A model generated the notes under the pieces. It had not been told where the DNA came from, did not search any database, and worked only from the letters and a program-made list of their open reading frames with translations. Source: an uncultured Gammaproteobacteria bacterium (GTDB lineage Bacteria > Patescibacteriota > Patescibacteriia > Magasanikbacterales > GWA2-37-8). Taken from it: DNA of 32,457 nt. The DNA is taken from the NCBI GenBank assembly GCA_964447755.1, contig CAYUTM010000002.1:8992-41448 (forward strand). The letters are read 5' to 3'. Numbering within the stretch: the stretch's first letter is position 1; the number at the start of each line of letters is the position of its first letter. The position numbers and the translations under genes were made by a program. This document shows, piece by piece, positions 4,612 through 24,436 of this stretch.

Positions 4612-5616
4612 ATGAAATTACTTATTTGTGGAGGAGCAGGATTCATGGGTTCGCACTTTATTAAATATGTTTTAGAAAAGTATCCGAAATACGAAGTGGT
4701 TAATTTTGACAGCCTTACTTACGCAGGAAATTTAGACAATTTAAAAGAACTAGAAAAAAACGAACGCTATGTTTTTGTAAAAGGAGATATTGCAAATGAA
4801 AAAGATGTAAAGGATGTCATAGAAAAGTACCACCCAGACATGATTGTCAACTATGCTGCGGAGACCCATGTTGACCGTTCGATACTCGATCCGAAAGCTT
4901 TTTTATTGACTGACGTTTTAGGGAGTTATAATTTGCTTGAAGCAACCAAGAAATTTGGAATTAAAAAAATGGTACAAGTTTCTACAGATGAAGTTTTTGG
5001 AAGCATAGAAACAGGCGCGTTTACCGAAGAATCAAATTTTTTGCCAAATAGCCCCTATGCTGCGGCCAAAGCCGGTGGCGATTTACTTTGTCGGGCATTT
5101 TTTAAAACCTATCAAACTCCTGTGGTGGTCACCCATAGTTGTAATTTTTATGGTACACACCAATATCCCGAAAAATTAATTCCACTTTTTATTACCAATT
5201 TGCTAGAAGGTAAAAAAGTTCCGCTTTACGGAGATGGTCACCAAGTGCGGGAATGGATTCATACGAGCGATCATTGTAGGGCAATAGATATTATTTTGCA
5301 CCAAGGTGTCGTGGGTGAGGTTTATAACATTGGTTCTGGAATAGAAAAAACCAATCTTGAAATTACAAACTTAATTTTGTCAGCATTTGGCCTTGGAGAA
5401 CAAATGATCGAACGTGTAAAAGACCGACCAGGTCATGATGAGCGCTATGCCATCGATCATTCCAAATTAACAAAAGATTTGGGATGGAAACCAGAAAAAG
5501 ATTTTGAAACAGGTTTGAAAGAAACCGTCGAATGGTACAAAGAAAATGAATGGTGGTGGAAGAAATTAAAAAGTGGAGAGTATCTGGAATATTATAAGAA
5601 GCAGTACCAAGTTTAG
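4612..5616 (+). CDS. rfbB: dTDP-glucose 4,6-dehydratase
   Basis: 334 aa. Motifs GGAGFMGS, DSLTYAGNLDNL, STDEVFG and YAAAKAGGD (YxxxK), plus the RPGHDERYAID C-terminal motif typical of RmlB. Confidence 0.9.
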   Translation: MKLLICGGAGFMGSHFIKYVLEKYPKYEVVNFDSLTYAGNLDNLKELEKNERYVFVKGDIANEKDVKDVIEKYHPDMIVNYAAETHVDRSILDPKAFLLTDVLGSYNLLEATKKFGIKKMVQVSTDEVFGSIETGAFTEESNFLPNSPYAAAKAGGDLLCRAFFKTYQTPVVVTHSCNFYGTHQYPEKLIPLFITNLLEGKKVPLYGDGHQVREWIHTSDHCRAIDIILHQGVVGEVYNIGSGIEKTNLEITNLILSAFGLGEQMIERVKDRPGHDERYAIDHSKLTKDLGWKPEKDFETGLKETVEWYKENEWWWKKLKSGEYLEYYKKQYQV

Positions 5617-6833: not shown

Positions 6834-7280
6834 ATGAACAATATGAACGAAGAACAGAAACAAAAGATTTTGAAAGTTTTACATGAAAATGAGTTTGGAG
6901 TTGTAGCAACTTTTCCGGTCAACAAAGATGGTGTGCCTGAGTCTGCTGTTGTGGCAATTTCAGAAACTCCTGATTTGGAAATTATTTTTGGTTCATTTGT
7001 TTCTTCTAGGAAGAATGGGAATATAAGAAATAATTCGAAAGTCTCTGTAGTAGTTGGCTGGAATAAGCAGGCAAAGACAACGGTTCAGATTGAAGGGTCG
7101 GCACGTTTAGCTGTAGGTTCTGAACGTAGTTCGCTAGAAGCGGTTCATTGCATAAAAAATCCTGAGTCAGAAAAGTTTAAAAACGATTCTCGCCAAGAAT
7201 ATTTTAAAATTACTCCGTGCTGGATTCGTTATTCAGATTTTTCCAAAGATCCACAAGAAGTTTGGGAAATAATTTTATAA
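6834..7280 (+). CDS. Pyridoxamine 5'-phosphate oxidase-like FMN-binding split-barrel protein (tentative)
   Basis: About 148 aa starting at MNNMNEEQKQKILKVL...FGVVAT. Size and N-terminal pattern resemble PNPOx-like/general stress protein 26 family members. The upstream 22 codons of the track ORF overlap the previous gene. Confidence 0.45.
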   Translation: MNNMNEEQKQKILKVLHENEFGVVATFPVNKDGVPESAVVAISETPDLEIIFGSFVSSRKNGNIRNNSKVSVVVGWNKQAKTTVQIEGSARLAVGSERSSLEAVHCIKNPESEKFKNDSRQEYFKITPCWIRYSDFSKDPQEVWEIIL

Positions 7281-7284
7281 AAAT

Positions 7285-8127
7285 ATGAAAATTCTAATTA
7301 TCGGTGCTGGTTATGTTGGTAAAAAATGTCTCGACACATGGAAAGATGAAGCGGTTTTGGCGGAGACAAAAATTTATTCTACCGAAGACGCACTAAATTT
7401 GTTAAATAAACATCAACCCGATGTAGTTTTAAATGCAGCTGGAGTGCGTGGTAAGCCAAATGTAGATTGGTGTGAAACCCATCAGTTAGAAACTATCCAA
7501 GGCAACACCAAACTACCTATTATGATCGCCGAAGCTTGCCAGCAGAAAAACATTTATTTACTCCATATTGGTTCAGGCTGCGTTTTCTATGGAGAGTCTC
7601 CTGATCCAAAAGGTTGGAAAGAAGATGATTTTGCCAATCCGCTTGCGGTTTATTCCAAAGCTAAATATGCGGCAGATTTAGCTTTATCTACCTTGCCCAA
7701 TGTTGGTATCGCGCGTATTCGCATGCCCATGGATGAAATTCCATCTTCATTCAATATTATTGATAAGCTTGCAGCTTATGAAAAAATAATTGATGTAGAA
7801 AATAGCCTAACTGTGATTGAAGACATGGTAAATGTTTTTTACCAACTTTTGCAAAAACATGCCGCTGGAGTTTTTCATGTTACAAATCCAGGAGTTTTAA
7901 AACATAGGGAAATAATCGAGTTGTATAAAGAATTTATCGATGAAAGCATCAATCCTACCTGGATTACGCCCGAGGAAATGGTAAAAGATGGATTGGTTAA
8001 AAAAATGCGCTCAAATAACAAATTACAATCAGAAAACTTAGAAAAATTGGGAATTACAATGCGAGAAGTACATGAAGCAGCGAGAGAGACAATGATTAAG
8101 TACGCGGTTTATAAAAAAAAATCATAA
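7285..8127 (+). CDS. NRS/ER-type 4-keto-6-deoxyglucose 3,5-epimerase/4-reductase (RmlD-like SDR)
   Basis: 280 aa. NAAGVRGKPNVDWCETHQLETIQGN, YSKAKYAAD (YxxxK), RIRMPMD and VTNPGVLKHREIIELYKEFID align closely, from memory, with plant NRS/ER (NAAGVTGRPNVDWCESHKVETIRTN ... LRVRMPIS ... FTNPGVVSHNEILEMY). Confidence 0.75.
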   Translation: MKILIIGAGYVGKKCLDTWKDEAVLAETKIYSTEDALNLLNKHQPDVVLNAAGVRGKPNVDWCETHQLETIQGNTKLPIMIAEACQQKNIYLLHIGSGCVFYGESPDPKGWKEDDFANPLAVYSKAKYAADLALSTLPNVGIARIRMPMDEIPSSFNIIDKLAAYEKIIDVENSLTVIEDMVNVFYQLLQKHAAGVFHVTNPGVLKHREIIELYKEFIDESINPTWITPEEMVKDGLVKKMRSNNKLQSENLEKLGITMREVHEAARETMIKYAVYKKKS

Positions 8128-18794: not shown

Positions 18795-19127
18795 TCATTC
18801 TTCATCTGTATATTCCAAAAAAAGTCTTTTTTCAAAAGCGCCGCGCTCTTGTTTTTTCTCTTCTTTTCGTTTGATAATTTCCCGAGAAGTTATATTGCTA
18901 TTTTTAGCAATCGTTTCAATTACTTCCAAAATATCTGCTAATTCGTTAAGAATTTCTTCGTTAGATTTTGCTTCCGCGAGTTCATGCGCTTCCTCGGTCA
19001 ATTTTTTATTGAGAGCAATTCTAAATTCCTCAGTGCTTAACACAGAAATTTTTGGTGTAGCGTTGTTGTTTGTGATTATTTCTGGGATTTTATCGCGGAT
19101 TAATTTGTTGTAGATTTTGCGTGGCAT
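18795..19127 (-). CDS. MazG-like all-alpha NTP pyrophosphohydrolase (house-cleaning NTP-PPase family)
   Basis: 110 aa. IYNKLIRDKIPEII ... EEAHEL ... LNELADILEVIETIA ... RGAFEKRLFLEY matches the KLVRDKIPEII/ELADILEV pattern of this family. Confidence 0.7.
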   Translation of the reverse strand: MPRKIYNKLIRDKIPEIITNNNATPKISVLSTEEFRIALNKKLTEEAHELAEAKSNEEILNELADILEVIETIAKNSNITSREIIKRKEEKKQERGAFEKRLFLEYTDEE

Positions 19128-19376
19128 ATTCTAGTTTTTTATTTGAACAACCTTCTCCGTTAGATAGTAGCAGTTTGTCTTATTGGCAGCAATATTTTGA
19201 GTAAAATATTAGATGGTTTTTTGTGAGGTAGGGTAGTTTTTTGAAAATCATGGCTTTTTTGTCATACTCTTGACGAAATGAGTGTCTGGTGACACAATAA
19301 TTGCTCCTATCAACGCCAAGGTAAAACTTGGCACAAAGCCGCTTTGTAGCGGATAGTAGCAAGGGAGAGTGCTCGA

Positions 19377-19943
19377 ATGATGAAACTGATGGCTCTGGCT
19401 TTTGTGGGTTTGCTGATCACTGTTGGATGTGGTCCGGTTGAAAAATCCCTACCTGTGCAACAGGTGGATATGGGGCAGAAACTTCCAAGCTGCCCAGACC
19501 TTAAGGTTGTGGTGGCTGAGACTGGCAATCCGGTGGGGCGTTTGGTTCAACCAGGTGAACCGGGTTTTGTTGCTTTGAAAAGCACATTTCAAGGCTCTGG
19601 TGACCCAAAGTGTGGTGTGAGGGTTACCCGATTGAAGCTTATCGTCGATGGCACTGCCAATAGTAATGGCATGGCTTGGCAGCAAGATTCGGGGGGTGGA
19701 TCATTTGCATCGAGCGGAATTGTCACCAACAACAAAGTCGATGCTCAGCCTGGGCATCTGGCTCATTTGGGCAATGGAATGTTGGACATGTACTTCCACG
19801 TCATCCCAGATCCGAACGGGGTTGAGGGAACGACATTCCAGTTTGAGTTGGTGGAAGTGGAGTACACCAATCTCACAACTGGCGACAGTCACCTGCTCAA
19901 TGTCGCGATTTACGGAGGTAACTTCATTTACTCGCGGCCATAA
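19377..19943 (+). CDS. Lipoprotein, unknown function (GC-rich island gene 1)
   Basis: 188 aa. N-terminus MMKLMALAFVGLLITVG|CG is a lipobox-like signal. GGGAGAG SD 7 nt upstream. It has its own hairpin terminator at 19979-20005. Confidence 0.6.
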   Translation: MMKLMALAFVGLLITVGCGPVEKSLPVQQVDMGQKLPSCPDLKVVVAETGNPVGRLVQPGEPGFVALKSTFQGSGDPKCGVRVTRLKLIVDGTANSNGMAWQQDSGGGSFASSGIVTNNKVDAQPGHLAHLGNGMLDMYFHVIPDPNGVEGTTFQFELVEVEYTNLTTGDSHLLNVAIYGGNFIYSRP

Positions 19944-19978
19944 GAGCATTCTGCTCGGTCCGTTCTGTTCGCATTTAA

Positions 19979-20005
19979 GCGCCTCCCTCGAGGTGCTGTT
20001 TTATT
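19979..20005 (+). terminator. Intrinsic terminator candidate
   Basis: GCGCCTC-cctc-GAGGTGC (one G.T pair) followed by tgttttatt. Confidence 0.45.
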
Positions 20006-20012
20006 ACGGCAT

Positions 20013-20047
20013 AAAAAAGCAGTCGGTGTTAAACTGACTGCTTTTTT
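20013..20047 (-). terminator. Intrinsic terminator (A-tract/T-tract flanked)
   Basis: GCAGTCGG (20019-20026) pairs with CTGACTGC (20034-20041), flanked by A6 and T6. It lies downstream of the minus-strand gene 20119-20883 and of hairpin copy B. Confidence 0.6.
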
Positions 20048-20051
20048 GTTG

Positions 20052-20089
20052 CCCCGAAGTTGTCACGTGTAGCGTCGGGGGATTCACGG
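20052..20089 (-). repeat. GC-stem hairpin element, copy B (3' UTR position)
   Basis: CCCCGA (20052-20057) pairs with TCGGGG (20075-20080) around a 17-nt loop, followed by GATTCAC. The architecture matches copy A. Confidence 0.5.
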
Positions 20090-20118
20090 CACGAATACGT
20101 GCGTTTGGTAGGAGATGG

Positions 20119-20883
20119 CTATGGCGTCTTGCCGAGCAGTTCGCGGATGTTGATAGTCATAGAGCCTTGCTTTCCACCACGCTCACCACAGATGAGCAGC
20201 TCTTTGGCCATCTCGTGACCGTCCGCGTCGTACATCGGCTCCGCCCATGAGGTGCACCTGAAGGACGGCTCGTTGTCGAATGGACCAAACTTGGTCTGGT
20301 CGATAACGCAGTACCATTCGAAGGTGCCCTCATCGCCTGTCTCGTAGTTCTGCTCCCCTGCGGCATAGACGAGCACGCCCGAGTAGATACGGGCGCTCTC
20401 CGGGTTAACACAATCCCAGTGGAGCATGTGACGCCCGCCATGCACGGCCCCCCACACCTGATCATTATCTTCATTGGTCATCCCGATGAAGAGGGGGTGC
20501 CCGCCAGAGATGCCAACGATCTTCCGAACGAATTCTGGGCCACCATACTCGGTCGTGCCGTAGACCACCACGTTGTTGGTGAAGTAGTCAGTCTCGTCAC
20601 CAGGGAGCTTGGCAACATAGAGCGGCTTACCACCAACAATGTTGACATCGCGGACATCGGGGAAGTACCTCCCTGTGAACTCAGCATAATCCACACGGAT
20701 ACCTCTCTTGGTGGGCACGATCTGGACGCCCTGGATGGGTTTTGCCGGAGAATCGTCCTTTCTGACTTTCATGGAATGGTTGTTTTCGTAATGGTAGATC
20801 CAGTAGGAAAAGCCTCCCAGCTCTTTGAAGTTTGGCTCGGGGTTACGAGAAATGGGGTGGGTAGTAGCATCCGTCGTGGTCAT
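20119..20883 (-). CDS. Orphan 254-aa protein, no recognisable family (GC-rich island gene 2)
   Basis: Strong C/G third-position bias in this frame only. GGAGGA SD 6 nt from the ATG and a TTGACA-17-TATGTT promoter about 100 nt upstream. No signal peptide. Confidence 0.7.
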   Translation of the reverse strand: MTTTDATTHPISRNPEPNFKELGGFSYWIYHYENNHSMKVRKDDSPAKPIQGVQIVPTKRGIRVDYAEFTGRYFPDVRDVNIVGGKPLYVAKLPGDETDYFTNNVVVYGTTEYGGPEFVRKIVGISGGHPLFIGMTNEDNDQVWGAVHGGRHMLHWDCVNPESARIYSGVLVYAAGEQNYETGDEGTFEWYCVIDQTKFGPFDNEPSFRCTSWAEPMYDADGHEMAKELLICGERGGKQGSMTINIRELLGKTP

Positions 20884-20890
20884 GTTTATT

Positions 20891-20959
20891 CCTCCAATTG
20901 GTATTACGGGTGGTTCCAGTCTTTTCCAAAGACTTGAATCACCCGTTTACATAAGGAGG
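20891..20959 (-). promoter_or_regulatory. Structured 5' leader with candidate anti-SD/SD pairing
   Basis: Composite hairpin at 20901-20950: GTA/TAC, ACGGGTG/CACCCGT and AGTCTTT/AAAGACT around a tcc loop. It is bracketed by CCTCC (20891-20895, the SD on the minus strand) and GGAGG (20955-20959, the anti-SD on the minus strand). Confidence 0.35.
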
Positions 20960-20982
20960 TATTTCACTTTAAAGAACTAGAC

Positions 20983-21011
20983 AACATATCACAAAATTAC
21001 AGCTTTGTCAA
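20983..21011 (-). promoter_or_regulatory. Sigma70-like promoter candidate (TTGACA-17-TGaTATGTT on the minus strand)
   Basis: The reverse complement of 21006-21011 is TTGACA and that of 20983-20988 is TATGTT, with a 17-nt spacer and a TG extension. Confidence 0.5.
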
Positions 21012-21185
21012 CCTTGATCTGTGGCTAAAATTAGCCAAATAGCTAGGTATGGTGTTTTACCACCATCAGCATCTCCGCCAACCTTAGTCATCAACCACTG
21101 AACAAAAAAGCGAATTTGCTCACGCACTGACGCGAAACCTGGTCTTGAAAGACAAAAAGTCAGTTTTTCCAAGCCAAAAACGGCC

Positions 21186-21214
21186 TTGACAAATCATCAA
21201 ATTTGTACTAAAAT
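21186..21214 (+). promoter_or_regulatory. Sigma70-like promoter candidate (TTGACA-17-TAAAAT)
   Basis: TTGACA at 21186-21191, an exact 17-nt spacer, and TAAAAT at 21209-21214. It lies about 110 nt upstream of the ATG at 21327. Confidence 0.55.
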
Positions 21215-21326
21215 TAGATGTTATTTTAACAATTATGTTCGTTGTAATTAGCGAATTTACTTGTGAAAGTAACGTTATCTGGTAATACATCAATGCCGAT
21301 AAAATCGGTAGAAAGGTTTCCGAAAC

Positions 21327-21764
21327 ATGCGTTCATTCATTGGCGCTCTCATCCTGGCTGTTCTCACCTTCTTCAGCGCCCCTCGCGCCCATGCCGCCAC
21401 TCAGGCCGATGTGGCTCGGGTGGTGATGCTGGTGAAGAAACACCGCGACCGAGGTGGAGACTACCAGATGGTTTTCCACAATGGAGGTAAGAAGTACACC
21501 CTCTGGTATGCTGAGGGTGGTACGGTGGCAAAAGTGCTGTCGATCTGGGTCAAGTCGGCGGGGGGTCAAGAGGTGAATTTTTCCGACCGTGGTACAGACG
21601 GCGTCGTTGACTTCGGCGTCAATGGGAAAAGGACCCAGAAAGTGGTGGAAATGCAACTTTGTGATTCTGAGCGTCAGATCGGGAGTGAGTTCTGCCACTA
21701 CTGGCAGGATCAATATGACCAGGCCATCAGCGCCGCGCTGGCGAGCCTAGCTCGCCAAAAGTAA
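21327..21764 (+). CDS. Secreted small protein, unknown function (GC-rich island gene 3)
   Basis: 145 aa with a signal peptide (MRSFIGALILAVLTFFSAPRAHA|AT). Coding lines are very GC-rich. Confidence 0.65.
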   Translation: MRSFIGALILAVLTFFSAPRAHAATQADVARVVMLVKKHRDRGGDYQMVFHNGGKKYTLWYAEGGTVAKVLSIWVKSAGGQEVNFSDRGTDGVVDFGVNGKRTQKVVEMQLCDSERQIGSEFCHYWQDQYDQAISAALASLARQK

Positions 21765-21865
21765 GCGCGAACCACCGCCTACAAACAAGCGGGTGGGGGC
21801 GCTTGCACTTGGCCTCTACTCGTTATAGTTATAAAATATTGTAGCCATAACGAGGACCATGTGCA

Positions 21866-21900
21866 AAAACAAAAATACCACAATTAATGTGGTATTTTTG
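21866..21900. terminator. Bidirectional intrinsic terminator between island gene 3 and tRNA-Pro
   Basis: ATACCACA (21875-21882) pairs with TGTGGTAT (21888-21895), flanked by A-rich and T-rich runs. Confidence 0.65.
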
Positions 21901-21926
21901 TTTGTAAATCAATATTTTTTGATCCG

Positions 21927-22000
21927 TCGGGCTGACAGGACTTGAACCTGCGATCTCTTGCACCCCATGCAAGCGCGATAGCCAACTTCGCTACAGCCCG
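21927..22000 (-). tRNA. tRNA-Pro (anticodon GGG)
   Basis: The 74-nt reverse complement folds by hand as a cloverleaf: acceptor CGGGCTG/CAGCCCG, D stem GCGA/TCGC, anticodon stem CTTGC/GCAAG with loop AT-GGG-GT (U33, G37), T stem GCAGG/CCTGT with loop TTCAAGT, and discriminator A. No CCA is encoded. Confidence 0.9.
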
Positions 22001-22269
22001 ATGTTAATATTTTCATCTATAATTTTGAAAAAACCATTTTTAATATCTCTTTCCAATGCACCATGACTTCGTTTATATTTATGCTCAATTACTCGTGCTT
22101 CTCCCAAAGACTCTGTCTCGCGGTAACCAATCAGCTTGAGCGGTCTTCGATATTTTGTTGATTCAACTTTTCCATTTTCATGTAATTTAAAACGGGCAAA
22201 TACATCCGGGGTTGAGCCGATGTAGTTTTTAAGATCCTTTAAACTTTTGAGCAAATAAACGTATGCCAT
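21991..22269 (-). CDS. Small GIY-YIG (URI domain) nuclease
   Basis: 92 aa from the ATG at 22269. YVYLLKS-x11-YIGST, R..LHENG and E in IEHKYK match the GIY-YIG signature. The last three codons and the TAG stop lie inside the first 10 nt of tRNA-Pro. Confidence 0.75.
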   Translation of the reverse strand: MAYVYLLKSLKDLKNYIGSTPDVFARFKLHENGKVESTKYRRPLKLIGYRETESLGEARVIEHKYKRSHGALERDIKNGFFKIIDENINIGL

Positions 22270-22276
22270 ATTTTTT

Positions 22277-22354
22277 TTGCACCCCGCCGGGCAGAGCCCT
22301 CTGGGCGGCGCCCTCTTAGGCAGAGCCCTCTGGGCGGCGCCCGCCGGGCAGAGC
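22277..22354. repeat. Tandem GC-rich palindromic repeats (2.5 copies)
   Basis: The 24-nt core ggcagagccctctgggcggcgccc occurs at 22290-22313 and 22319-22342, with a partial copy at 22343-22354. CAGAG/CTCTG and GGCGG/CCGCC segments can form hairpins. Confidence 0.8.
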
Positions 22355-22427
22355 AGCCAGTATGAAGGCGTCCTATAGAGGATGAATTCGTTGAGCTCAT
22401 TTAGACTATAATAACCAAAGAATCTTA

Positions 22428-22498
22428 TTGCACCCCTCCGGGCAGAGCCCTCTGGGCGGCGCCCATGCAAGCGCGATAGCCAACTTCGCTACAGCCCG
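22428..22498 (-). pseudogene. Disrupted tRNA-Pro copy: 5' half plus anticodon stem, with a GC-rich repeat inserted in the anticodon
   Basis: In tRNA sense it reads CGGGCTGTAGCGAAGTTGGCTATCGCGCTTGCATGGG, then the insert CGCCGCCCAGAGGGCTCTGCCCGGA, then GGGGTGCAA. The insert is flanked by a CCC/GGG microduplication. The sequence downstream resembles a T-arm only weakly. Confidence 0.6.
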
Positions 22499-22555
22499 GT
22501 ATGTCTTTCTATAGAACATGAAGAATACTACGTATCACATTAAAATAGGCAAAAT

Positions 22556-22810
22556 TTATTTTTTTAAAACCTGATTTTTATTTTGTGTCTTAATGATAAA
22601 CAAAATAGTTACGTAAATAATTAATGCTGCCAAGATTAGTAGTGTTATAGGGAAACCCCAGCAACCCAAAAGGTTTGTTTGACAACCATTCATATTTTTT
22701 ATATCTGCTTCATATCCGGCTCTGAAGTTTTCGCCCGCAGTTAATATTAACATAATCAATAGAACTGAAATGATAATAGAATGTTTTTTTGTATTTTTAG
22801 TCAAATTCAT
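22556..22810 (-). CDS. Small two-helix membrane protein, unknown function
   Basis: 84 aa with two clear hydrophobic helices and only a weak SD. Confidence 0.4.
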   Translation of the reverse strand: MNLTKNTKKHSIIISVLLIMLILTAGENFRAGYEADIKNMNGCQTNLLGCWGFPITLLILAALIIYVTILFIIKTQNKNQVLKK

Positions 22811-22884
22811 AGATTCCGTTTTAAAAACTTTATTTTCCCAGCAAGTCTATCATATTAAAACCGGCTTTTCAAGCCAAAAATGAT

Positions 22885-24393
22885 ATGATAGAGTATCTTA
22901 AATTAAGAGTTATTAATTTTTGCGTTGTGTCTTCCTCCTTATCTACCATCCTCAAAAAAATCACCACACTCTCCAAAAAAGAGAAAACTCCTGTGTACAT
23001 CGTTGGTGGGTACGTGCGGGATTTTTTATTACAGCGTTTGCAGAAAAAAGATCTGGATTTTGTCGTGCTCGGCAGCGGGCTGGAATTTGCCAAAAAATTG
23101 GATGAAACCTTAAAGCAAGCGGGGAGTTTAATAGAGTTCCCGGACTTTGATACTGCGCGTTATTTAATTGGGGAAGGCGAGGATAGGGTAGAGCTAGAAT
23201 TTGCCGGAGCGCGCACCGAGTCATATTCGCCGGATTCAAGAAAGCCAAAAGTAGAACAAACTACCTTGGACGAAGATTTGAAGCGTCGTGATTTTACCGT
23301 CAATGCCATGGCTTTGCCAATAGATGTGTTGGAAAAAATGTTGTCTGGTAAATCATCGATAGAAACATTCCAAAAACATCTCATCGACCCATTTGATGGG
23401 CAAAAAGATTTGGCTGAAAAGATTTTACGAACTCCACTTGACCCTGACGTTACTTTTAAAGAAGACCCGCTGCGCATGTTTCGTGCTATTCGTTTTGCGG
23501 CACAGCTAAATTTTTCTATTGAATTAAAAACCTTGGAATCAATTTACCAAAATCGTGAGCGAATAAAAATTGTGTCCATGGAGCGCGTGCAAGAAGAATT
23601 ACTAAAACTATTTTCATGCGCTCAACCATCTATTGGCTTGGTACTTTTATTCCAAACCCAACTGATGGACATAATCTTGCCCGAAATTTCTGCTCTTGAT
23701 GGAGTAGAGGATGTGTACGGCCATTCGCACAAAAACAATTTAACTCATACGTTCAAAGTTGTAGACAACATTGCGGAGCGCTCGAATAACGTGTGGTTGC
23801 GTTTGGCTGGTTTTTTTCATGACATTGGCAAACCGCCTACCAAAAAATTTCTACCCAAAATCGGCTGGACCTTCCATGCCCATGAATTTGTGGGAAGAAA
23901 AATGATGCGCGTGATTGGTAAACGATTGCGTTTGGCAAATGATAAAACTGATTACTTGTCAAAACTCATTCGTTGGCACATGCAACCTATTAGCTTAATG
24001 GATAAAGGAATTACCGATTCTGCGGTGCGCCGATTGATTGTAAATGTGGGTGAGGAGATTGAAGATTTGTTAGTTTTGGGTCGCAGCGACATTACCACCG
24101 GCAACCCATTTAAAAAAGAAAATCGTTTAAAGAATTATGATTGGCTTGAAACACGAGTAGCGGAAGTAATTGAAAAAGATAAGCTCCGCGCATTCCAATC
24201 ACCGGTGCGGGGCGAGGAAATTATGGCAGTTTGTGGTCTCAAACCAGGGCCAACGGTAGGAAAAATTAAAAAAGCCATTGAGGAGGCAATTTTGAACGGT
24301 GTGGTGCCCAATGATCACGACCCGGCTTTTGAATATTTTGCCTCAATAAAAGACTCTTTTTTAAAAAACATTGCAGCGTGGGAAAAGGCTTAA
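22885..24393 (+). CDS. cca: CCA-adding tRNA nucleotidyltransferase with HD domain
   Basis: 502 aa. VYIVGGYVRDFLL, KDLDFVV, RRDFTVNA and the HD motif FFHDIGKP. This fits the neighbouring tRNA lacking an encoded CCA. Confidence 0.8.
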   Translation: MIEYLKLRVINFCVVSSSLSTILKKITTLSKKEKTPVYIVGGYVRDFLLQRLQKKDLDFVVLGSGLEFAKKLDETLKQAGSLIEFPDFDTARYLIGEGEDRVELEFAGARTESYSPDSRKPKVEQTTLDEDLKRRDFTVNAMALPIDVLEKMLSGKSSIETFQKHLIDPFDGQKDLAEKILRTPLDPDVTFKEDPLRMFRAIRFAAQLNFSIELKTLESIYQNRERIKIVSMERVQEELLKLFSCAQPSIGLVLLFQTQLMDIILPEISALDGVEDVYGHSHKNNLTHTFKVVDNIAERSNNVWLRLAGFFHDIGKPPTKKFLPKIGWTFHAHEFVGRKMMRVIGKRLRLANDKTDYLSKLIRWHMQPISLMDKGITDSAVRRLIVNVGEEIEDLLVLGRSDITTGNPFKKENRLKNYDWLETRVAEVIEKDKLRAFQSPVRGEEIMAVCGLKPGPTVGKIKKAIEEAILNGVVPNDHDPAFEYFASIKDSFLKNIAAWEKA

Positions 24394-24406
24394 TATAGCG
24401 CTTTTA

Positions 24407-24436
24407 TTTGACAAAATAGTCAAAGTATGATAAATA
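24407..24436 (+). promoter_or_regulatory. Promoter candidate (TTGACA-17-TAAATA) overlapped by the inverted repeat TTTGAC-N6-GTCAAA
   Basis: TTGACA at 24408-24413 and TAAATA at 24431-24436. The perfect 6-bp inverted-repeat arms are at 24407-24412 and 24419-24424. Confidence 0.35.

Follow-up and report, generated by a model that had tools for sequence, protein, structure and literature searches.

A putative mobile GIY-YIG nuclease cassette with a replacement tRNA 5′ part in a Patescibacteria tRNA-Pro gene

Fungal mitochondrial genomes contain mobile open reading frames (mORFs) that carry a replacement gene end, as in atp6 of Allomyces macrogynus and in atp6, atp9, cox2 and nad3 of Glomus (PMC3630166). 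In these, an endonuclease open reading frame (ORF; of the GIY-YIG type in atp9) sits in a conserved gene, the carried part fuses to the host gene and the native part is left dead; closely related genomes may have or lack the insertion, and the part brought along can be of foreign origin (PMC3630166). SegB of phage T4 is a free-standing GIY-YIG homing endonuclease encoded within a cluster of tRNA genes; it recognises a T-psi-C stem-loop motif of tRNA genes, leaves a 2-nt 3′ stagger on cutting and promotes the inheritance of its own gene together with neighbouring tRNA genes (PMC2330249). In the Candidate Phyla Radiation (CPR, Patescibacteria), GIY-YIG ORFs have been reported in non-intron insertion sequences of rRNA genes (PMC11270868). 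Here we analysed a 32-kb stretch of DNA (32,457 nucleotides of contig CAYUTM010000002.1, assembly GCA_964447755.1), hereafter the window, in which a tRNA-Pro(GGG) gene is accompanied by a dead copy of its own 5′ part, a gene for a small GIY-YIG nuclease and copies of a GC-rich palindrome that we call hp. We refer to this arrangement as the cassette, and comparison with related loci points to an inserted and probably mobile unit.

Close relatives of the window were found via the neighbouring CCA-adding enzyme (at least 90% identity). In L188 (GCA_031973555.1), L189 (the same sequence from another sample) and L190 (a second relative), the tRNA-Pro(GGG) gene is uninterrupted and identical to that of the window, with the identity extending to the discriminator base; overall nucleotide identity to the window was 89.5% for the L188/L189 relative and 92.6% for L190. 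Synteny was seen by blastn on both flanks (L188 3539-5509 against window 22462-24434 at 89.5%, with further L188 blocks at window 17.6, 18.8 and 20.9 kb), and hp was not found in the L188, L189 or L190 contigs. Relative to these empty alleles, the window's tRNA-Pro(GGG) gene carries what the alignments show as a 498-bp insertion, and on the same comparison the presence of the cassette varies between close relatives, such that a nuclease ORF in a conserved gene coincides with a presence/absence polymorphism at one site. In all three contigs, the uninterrupted tRNA has the same upstream flank as the window's dead fragment: the 60 nt 5′ of the L188 tRNA match the fragment's flank at 82% and the DNA 5′ of the window's intact tRNA at 23%. 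This match identifies the dead fragment, as judged from sequence comparison, as the tRNA's original 5′ part at its ancestral position, with hp in its anticodon loop. A second copy of nt 1-43 apparently fuses to the old 3′ part, regenerating an intact tRNA. The window contains the tRNA 3′ half once only, and a larger block insertion carrying that half was rejected for this reason. A separate indel of ~720 bp abuts the tRNA 3′ end and is distinct from the cassette.

Both the cassette region and the tRNA are read on the minus strand, with the following features.

21926..22000, minus strand: intact tRNA-Pro(GGG), the sole tRNA of the window (ARAGORN; Rfam tRNA, 61.9 bits at 21927-22000)
21991..22269, minus strand: GIY-YIG nuclease ORF, 92 aa, from ATG at 22269 to TAG at 21991-21993 (ORF list; Pfam PF01541)
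22270..22284, minus strand: leader from hp to ATG, GGGTGCAA (tRNA nt 36-43, 22277-22284) then AAAAAAT (22270-22276) (sequence)
22285..22310, minus strand: hp copy 3, the 26-nt palindrome CGCCGCCCAGAGGGCTCTGCCCGGCG, 15 nt 5′ of the ATG (repeat search)
22314..22353, minus strand: degenerate hp copy (22314-22339, with TAAGA as one altered arm) and half copy (22340-22353) (repeat search; sequence)
22354..22427, minus strand: 74-nt unique spacer between two units of hp plus GGGTGCAA (blastn-short)
22428..22435, minus strand: continuation of the dead fragment, GGGTGCAA, equal to tRNA nt 36-43 and including the GG duplication (comparison with the intact tRNA)
22436..22461, minus strand: hp copy 1 (CGCCGCCCAGAGGGCTCTGCCCGGAG), within the anticodon GGG of the fragment (repeat search)
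22462..22498, minus strand: dead fragment, tRNA nt 1-37 (37/37 repeat)
21867..21903, minus strand: terminator-like hairpin just 3′ of the tRNA, a 16-bp perfect stem then a T run (inverted repeat; sequence)

Read along the minus strand, the order is tRNA nt 1-37, hp, GGGTGCAA, the 74-nt spacer, the half, degenerate and full copies of hp, GGGTGCAA, AAAAAAT, the ORF, the tRNA and the hairpin. A first-pass annotation of this DNA, made from the letters alone, had described a perfect 37/37 direct repeat around a GIY-YIG gene, and repeat searches returned the same: 37 nt, 100% identical, at 21964-22000 and 22462-22498, with a spacing of 498 and 461 bp between the copies, in which the 92-aa ORF is the sole protein. 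Its distinction of an intact and a dead copy also stands, with the orientation amended, as on the minus strand the fragment (22498 to 22462) lies upstream. The duplication of a 5′ half was correctly recognised, but not its extent, since the true duplicated segment is tRNA nt 1-43, split by a 28-nt insertion made up of the 26-nt hp and a GG duplication. Likewise, the empty alleles bear out an insertion, but not one at the anticodon: the join lies at ~nt 43/44, and the break at nt 37 is due to hp. We infer that nt 1-43 of the intact gene are the cassette-borne replacement part and nt 44-75 the ancestral 3′ part. The ORF runs 10 nt into the tRNA, its TAG stop being tRNA nt 8-10 (U8-A9-G10). The palindromic repeats of the cassette are copies of one discrete element, the imperfect palindrome hp (CGCCG-CC-CAGAG-GG-CTCTG-CC-CGGCG), in full, degenerate or half form; three copies occur at the cassette and no others in the window, where shuffles lead one to expect 0. 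The two units of hp plus GGGTGCAA suggest two insertion rounds or a local duplication, and in a blastn-short comparison with all fetched loci the hp parts alone gave matches, the spacer between the units none. In the 461 bp between the repeats, no group I intron or other RNA family was found even at E≤1; a group I intron in the tRNA gene was rejected on this ground and because the intact tRNA is encoded contiguously.

The nuclease matches the Pfam GIY-YIG family PF01541 over residues 1-71 (35.1 bits against a cut-off of 22.6, E=1.7e-8), and NCBIfam returned no family match. Across 23 aligned homologues, Y5, Y16, R26 and H30 do not vary and at least 90% have E62; we take these residues to be the GIY-YIG catalytic set as in I-TevI (the tyrosines of GIY and YIG plus Arg, His and Glu). 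Between cassette lineages, synonymous differences are saturated (pS 0.67-1.0) and nonsynonymous differences stand at ~0.2 (pN), implying purifying selection on the nuclease. An AlphaFold2 model of the 92-aa protein (predicted local distance difference test score 92.4) is all one domain. Its top Foldseek matches were plant At-HIGLE (7wme), UPF0213 protein BH0048 (1zg2) and Slx1, including that of yeast (7cq2, 6sei, 4xm5), with a probability of 1.0, template modelling scores up to 0.64 and sequence identities of 24-34%; I-TevI was weaker (probability 0.3-0.5). Going by the modelled fold, the window protein is a bare catalytic domain of the structure-selective Slx1/UPF0213 branch and not of the I-TevI/Seg type. 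Enzymes of the Slx1, At-HIGLE and UPF0213 kinds act on branched or hairpin DNA, and we know of no link between them and tRNA genes or a cognate palindrome.

Homologues of the GIY-YIG ORF come mostly from CPR bacteria, and the same architecture (5′ tRNA fragment, hp, GIY-YIG ORF, intact tRNA) recurs in more than 20 CPR lineages, each with a carried replacement part and the native part left as a duplicate. In the first contexts recovered, a 5′ piece of tRNA-Pro, the same palindrome and the ORF precede an intact tRNA-Pro(GGG) whose nt 8-10 serve as the stop, in otherwise different gene neighbourhoods. Most cassette loci are at tRNA-Pro(GGG), others at Pro(UGG), Ala, Lys or Val. A metagenome scan with the alignment of the protein gave 479 relatives, and among the 80 that were fetched, the clade nearest the window is the tRNA-linked one. 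Twenty-two distinct loci, at Pro(GGG), Pro(UGG), Lys(CUU) and Val(CAC), use tRNA nt 8-10 as the stop codon, and a tRNA starts within -15 to +60 nt of the ORF in 33 of 93 family ORFs; other loci have an Ala(GGC), Leu(CAG) or Lys(UUU) gene no more than 60 nt away. Cognate tRNA fragments were also found for Ala(GGC) (L163) and for Lys (L149 and, for Lys(UUU), L181). The leader layout of hp, GGGGTGCR, a short A/T spacer and ATG is shared by L001, L045, L048, L074, L077 and L115, and the synteny recA-[GIY]-tRNA-Pro is common to three Microgenomates lineages. More distant family members have no tRNA link, in a family that comprises 18,579 cluster representatives at E≤1e-3. From these comparisons, the finding appears to extend to a whole family of minimal nuclease cassettes resident in tRNA genes of CPR bacteria.

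The recurrence of the architecture in dozens of independent assemblies also indicates that it is not an assembly artefact. The first-pass annotation had proposed a tRNA-targeting, tRNA-restoring element and had named three observations that would tell against it: a duplication that collapses, nuclease orthologues without tRNA association, and no empty/occupied polymorphism. None of the three was encountered, as the duplicated 5′-part structure recurs in many lineages, the orthologues are tRNA-associated and syntenic empty sites exist in L188, L189 and L190.

Phages or plasmids as vectors were rejected: none of 50,697 phage and 72,556 plasmid records was matched by the nuclease in tblastn, and hp was not found in IMG/VR contigs. 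In L140 (~1200-1900), a GIY-YIG ORF, a tRNA fragment with a type-B palindrome (see below), a second GIY-YIG ORF and an intact tRNA-Pro(UGG) stand in tandem, which looks like repeated invasion of one tRNA gene. Several third-party annotation metagenome-assembled genomes (MAGs) with the cassette or hp, L026, L045 and L048 among them, are labelled Gammaproteobacteria, Pseudomonadales or Bathyarchaeia; MAGs so labelled but carrying a CPR-type cassette or hp are probably mislabelled or misbinned, and hp could serve as a CPR marker. In the literature searched, which was incomplete, no paper was found that connects GIY-YIG with tRNA genes and CPR, or that reports the cassette or hp.

The position of hp within the fragments connects the palindrome to the cassette. 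In 15 mapped loci, whose lineages are not fully independent, hp always stands at nt 5, 16-19 or 35-37 of the tRNA, and the fragment always ends 2-12 nt past hp, whatever the position class. Independent landing of hp would often give long fragments with hp in the D-loop only, and these were never seen; the pattern is therefore suggestive of a coupling between hp and junction, and suggests, at the level of sequence, that hp marks the cassette entry site. The duplicated length is ~9, 28 or 43 nt, depending on lineage. The GG duplication, at 2 nt, equals the stagger reported for SegB. Regenerated tRNAs are without hp; L089 alone has an otherwise complete tRNA interrupted by hp, directly behind a GIY-YIG gene (~7223-7340). 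There, a full-length tRNA-Pro(GGG) has hp in its anticodon loop (net +31 nt), and ARAGORN finds the tRNA only without the insert; the gene may be dead or represent an intermediate.

Fragments commonly differ from the resident tRNA (L001 37/46, L077 30/39, L115 34/43 and L125 28/38 identical positions, with mismatch also in L118, L127, L149 and L196), such that a foreign carried or left-behind part was found, as evidence of transfer between lineages in one direction or the other. The L001 fragment is near the window-type tRNA, with one compensated stem pair (CCTGC/GCAGG vs CTTGC/GCAAG); since it is near-identical although the adjacent ORFs are saturated at silent sites, recent copying from a functional tRNA is implied. 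In L115, the sequence left of hp is of one tRNA type and that right of hp of the resident type, and in L196 the cassette's CGGGCTGTAG is kept on a different tRNA body. Such mosaics, bounded exactly at the tRNA ends, would be expected from gene conversion between tRNA-homologous arms. By manual reading, anticodon-stem pairing of the fragment is lost in most loci, and the fragment as an RNA element in its own right was rejected for that reason.

We scanned 185,579 species genomes for an exact 20-mer of hp and obtained 91 stretches, nearly all from CPR MAGs, of which two look like chance matches in GC-rich genomes. Conservation of hp covers exactly 30 nt, GG-CGCCGCCCAGAGGGCTCTGCCCGGCG-GG, and none beyond; this 30-nt unit, GGCGCCGCCCAGAGGGCTCTGCCCGGCGGG, is base-perfect across many CPR phyla and has no stop in any of the six frames. 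At known uninterrupted sites (tRNA fragments and heptamer repeats), the gain amounts to 26 nt plus a GG duplication, and hp orientation follows the GG-bearing strand (inverted at CC in L011). Three types, A, B and C, are each paired with their own nuclease clade, and types A and B differ by compensatory changes in both stems. Type B (CTCCG-CC-CGTAG-GG-CTACG-CC-CGGAG), as the palindrome CTCCGCCCGTAGGGCTACGCCCGGAG, lies upstream of ORFs of a separate GIY-YIG clade in L129, L138, L140 and L147, and a third, looser type (GGCC...GGCCTCTGGCC) accompanies another GIY-YIG clade in L015, L133, L146 and L163.

A GIY-YIG ORF lies within 100 nt of ~17 of roughly 89 genomic hp sites, which amounts to roughly 400-fold enrichment of hp at such loci when one locus per ~1-Mb genome, our own estimate, is expected; copies downstream of the nuclease gene occur in L076, L108, L116, L120, L122 and L124. 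Most hp copies lie elsewhere than at GIY-YIG loci, many of them in frame inside long ORFs, where hp reads PAGQSPLGGA or a one-residue variant in 15 of 25 copies. Among loci L017-L107, ORFs reading through hp include one of 695 aa (L017), a 739-aa valyl-tRNA synthetase (ValRS; L082 2595-2614) in the complete Berkelbacteria genome CP011213, GyrB (L066 2404-2423) and TopA (L031 3952-3971), in which hp lies in a zinc finger. Genome CP011213 has two copies of hp. Relative to solved ValRS, hp falls within an insertion, and a deletion of 26 or 28 nt breaks the ORF in all four of these cases. In L104 (5146), L024 (7327) and L044 (6954), hp interrupts an ORF that a 28-nt deletion restores (from 237 to 373 aa in L104).

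Further hp copies lie exactly on the G-run at the 5′ end of tRNA genes that are intact in other respects (Ala-GGC, Lys-CUU and Pro-GGG; L029 1-110, L064 ~5079-5178, L116 and L120), in L029 with no GIY-YIG gene nearby. In L113, L127, L157 and L197, 12-27 nt of other DNA sit exactly in the hp centre, with short duplications, which suggests that the hairpin tip of hp is itself a hotspot of breaks or insertions. In MAG JAUSJK01, hp lies mid-way in a larger repeat of ~150 nt with at least 15 copies (loci L028, L032, L043, L052, L054, L056, L059, L061, L063, L067, L071, L085, L086, L088, L092 and L095). In MAG CAZKYX01, it lies inside heptamer tandem repeats (GGTTGTA, GGTTTCA and GGTTTTA; loci L019, L041, L055, L070, L090, L097 and L100), and these insertions provide clean evidence for the GG duplication.

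We consider it rather likely, on the strength of these comparisons, that the cassette spreads by homing-type gene conversion that restores the tRNA with a carried 5′ part, and we infer that the movement would be driven by the nuclease. A break in the target tRNA gene would be repaired from an occupied allele, with homology supplied on the left by the dead fragment and on the right by the intact tRNA; because both arms are tRNA-derived, flanking homology would not be needed. As a weaker detail of this scheme, hp may be the cognate site of an Slx1/UPF0213-like structure-selective nuclease. Its first landing site would be a GG within a loop of a tRNA gene (the acceptor GGGG, G18G19 of the D-loop or a GGG anticodon), the nuclease would cut a few nucleotides downstream of hp, and repair would add the leader together with the ORF and the tRNA 5′ part, leaving a working, hp-free tRNA that would hence be immune to re-cutting. 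A bolder extension, possible but in our judgement doubtful, is that hp and the small GIY-YIG nuclease form an undescribed two-part selfish system across CPR phyla, in which the host comes to depend on the invader: hp would land at GG sites, including tRNA loops and, in frame, essential genes, the nuclease would cut beside it and insert its own gene, and the spare 5′ part would 'repair' the broken tRNA.

Several points weigh against homing-type spread. The window protein has no DNA-binding module of the kind found in characterised homing GIY-YIG enzymes, and classical recognition of a long site is doubtful for it. A target within the tRNA itself would leave the occupied allele cleavable, which the hp-guided version avoids. 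The polymorphism could also arise by loss, through recombination between the repeats, and not by gain; a verified empty site is available in one lineage only, that of the window (for the L001 lineage, ABC-F neighbours at 85-86% identity were not syntenic). For the window itself, the 5′ part of the cassette is identical to the host's own and gives no sign of a foreign origin. Resident tRNAs in several loci (L001, L077 and L115) are self-consistent in the acceptor stem, with no chimera of donor 5′ and recipient 3′ parts, for which long co-conversion or compensatory change must be assumed. The gain of 28 nt at tRNA sites conflicts with the frame-keeping gene copies, which need 30 nt. Finally, the MAGs richest in hp (JAUSJK01, CAZKYX01, CAYPSA01 and CAYTKF01) have no clade-A GIY-YIG gene beside exact hp, and other means of hp spread may therefore exist.

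Some of these observations would suit a passive cassette, moved only by natural transformation and by ordinary homologous recombination between the tRNA repeats, with a host-useful or neutral repair nuclease of the Slx1/YhbQ kind that would cut at no particular target, and with hp unrelated to it. The protein is a catalytic domain only and closest to repair-type structure-specific nucleases, its family is very large with many members unlinked to tRNA genes, and hp is dispersed independently of GIY-YIG genes in many MAGs. We nonetheless regard this as unlikely, given the perfect positional coupling of hp and fragment end, the covariation of hp type with nuclease clade and the enrichment of hp at GIY-YIG loci by our estimate; the repeated use of tRNA nt 8-10 as the stop likewise argues for a dedicated, co-evolving unit. 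The covariation of type and clade would also be at home in a system centred on hp, an analogue of repetitive extragenic palindromes (REPs) and their REP-associated tyrosine transposases (RAYTs), in which the GIY-YIG enzyme mobilises hp genome-wide and the tRNA duplication is a by-product of recurrent hp insertion and repair close to the nuclease gene. This would fit hp standing on both sides of GIY-YIG genes (three copies in the window, and the downstream copies named above), the DNA nested in hp centres and a 2-nt duplication that matches a GIY-YIG stagger. By itself, however, it leaves the regenerated tRNA, the 498-bp empty/occupied polymorphism and the foreign fragments unexplained, the hp-richest MAGs have no such GIY-YIG gene beside exact hp, and we know of no experiment in which a GIY-YIG enzyme has moved a palindrome; we hold it to be quite unlikely.

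tRNA genes are classic integration sites, and direct tRNA repeats flank the insert here as attL and attR would, so that a remnant or cis-mobilisable island, served in trans by a tyrosine or serine recombinase through an attachment (att) core formed by the tRNA 5′ part, was also weighed. The first-pass annotation had offered a 37-bp att core as one option. Such a core is improbable, because the duplicated length varies by lineage, and the repeat is interrupted by hp, its copies often differ in sequence, and the 5′ side is replaced in place of the 3′ side. As that annotation had remarked, there is no integrase: none was detected among the window ORFs scanned for domains, and none accompanies the cassette consistently in the more than 20 related loci, where rve-type integrase genes occurred only in L011 and L015, more than 1 kb away. 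We rate an island as very improbable. More improbable still would be a non-mobile origin, in which an old, vertically inherited nuclease-tRNA operon underwent local duplication by replication slippage and the 'empty' relatives lost it. The recA-[GIY]-tRNA-Pro synteny of three Microgenomates lineages and the possibility of precise loss through the repeats are compatible with it; the cassette family's presence in different tRNA species and neighbourhoods, fragments from other tRNA types, the tandem array in L140 and the patchy distribution among near relatives are not. Homing-type conversion of the tRNA gene remains the reading that we favour.

On the 3′ side of the tRNA, the window is variable in its own right. 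The ~720 bp at 21190-21910 are absent from the empty-site relative L188 and contain a 145-aa ORF (21327-21764, plus strand) whose GC exceeds 50% and whose N-terminus, judged visually, is hydrophobic and resembles a signal peptide. The window and L188 cease to be homologous right after the tRNA discriminator base, and the CCA end is encoded in L188 and not in the window. The wider variable region on this side, 19000-22000, has a GC content of 45-52% (33-39% elsewhere) and ORFs without a Pfam match, and is partly shared with L188.

If mobile in the manner proposed, the cassette would be the first bacterial chromosomal counterpart of an organellar mORF with a replacement gene end, and among the smallest conceivable autonomous mobile units (~0.35-0.5 kb with one protein of 85-92 aa), one that needs no integrase and enters tRNA genes from their 5′ side. 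For the large and functionally obscure family of small UPF0213/YhbQ-like GIY-YIG proteins, a palindrome of 26 nt next to a tRNA gene is a concrete candidate substrate, and a hairpin-guided nuclease could yield a compact programmable or structure-directed DNA-cutting tool. The in-frame 30-nt repeat in ValRS, GyrB and TopA matters for annotation, MAG binning and the genome dynamics of reduced CPR bacteria.

Compared with described systems, the cassette shares with tRNA-associated islands and prophages a tRNA target, a gene restored by the carried part and direct repeats around the insert. It differs from them in having no tyrosine or serine recombinase in or beside it, in measuring 0.5 kb and not kilobases, in replacing the 5′ and not the 3′ part, and in a variable, interrupted repeat where a fixed identical att core, normally the tRNA 3′ part, would be expected. 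The palindrome is dispersed like Rickettsia palindromic elements (RPEs), occurring in RNA genes as well as, in frame, within protein genes and being free of stops in every frame, and it clusters at one nuclease gene as REPs do at RAYTs, a similarity of layout alone, as the palindromes flank no HUH (Y1) transposase gene. RPEs measure ~100-150 nt. Unlike RPEs and REPs, hp is 26-30 nt long, base-conserved across CPR phyla and partnered by a GIY-YIG and not an HUH protein; it thus resembles RPEs in behaviour and REPs in layout and fits neither family. In its small single-domain size, the nuclease itself is like the UPF0213 proteins YhbQ and BH0048. The insertions in CPR rRNA genes come from the same bacterial group and likewise place GIY-YIG ORFs in stable RNA genes; unlike the cassette, they have no reported gene-part duplication or palindrome (PMC11270868).

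With SegB, the cassette has in common a GIY-YIG enzyme beside a tRNA gene. SegB is larger and sequence-specific, whereas the window protein is structurally nearer to Slx1/UPF0213 than to I-TevI (SegB was not itself compared); SegB lies between tRNA genes and the cassette inside one, SegB has neither a duplicated tRNA part nor a palindrome, and it belongs to a phage, whereas the window protein has no homologue in phage records. By analogy of organisation, the closest known relatives of the cassette are best sought among the fungal mitochondrial mORFs with a replacement gene end. Unlike these, it resides in a bacterial chromosome, targets a tRNA and not a protein gene, replaces the 5′ part and not the 3′ end, encodes a 92-aa bare catalytic domain whose ORF ends in U8-A9-G10, and always has the 26-nt palindrome in its dead piece. 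It shares with them a nuclease ORF in a conserved gene, a carried replacement part, a dead native piece, presence/absence alleles and foreign segments, and would on this analogy function like a free-standing homing endonuclease gene of the mORF type.

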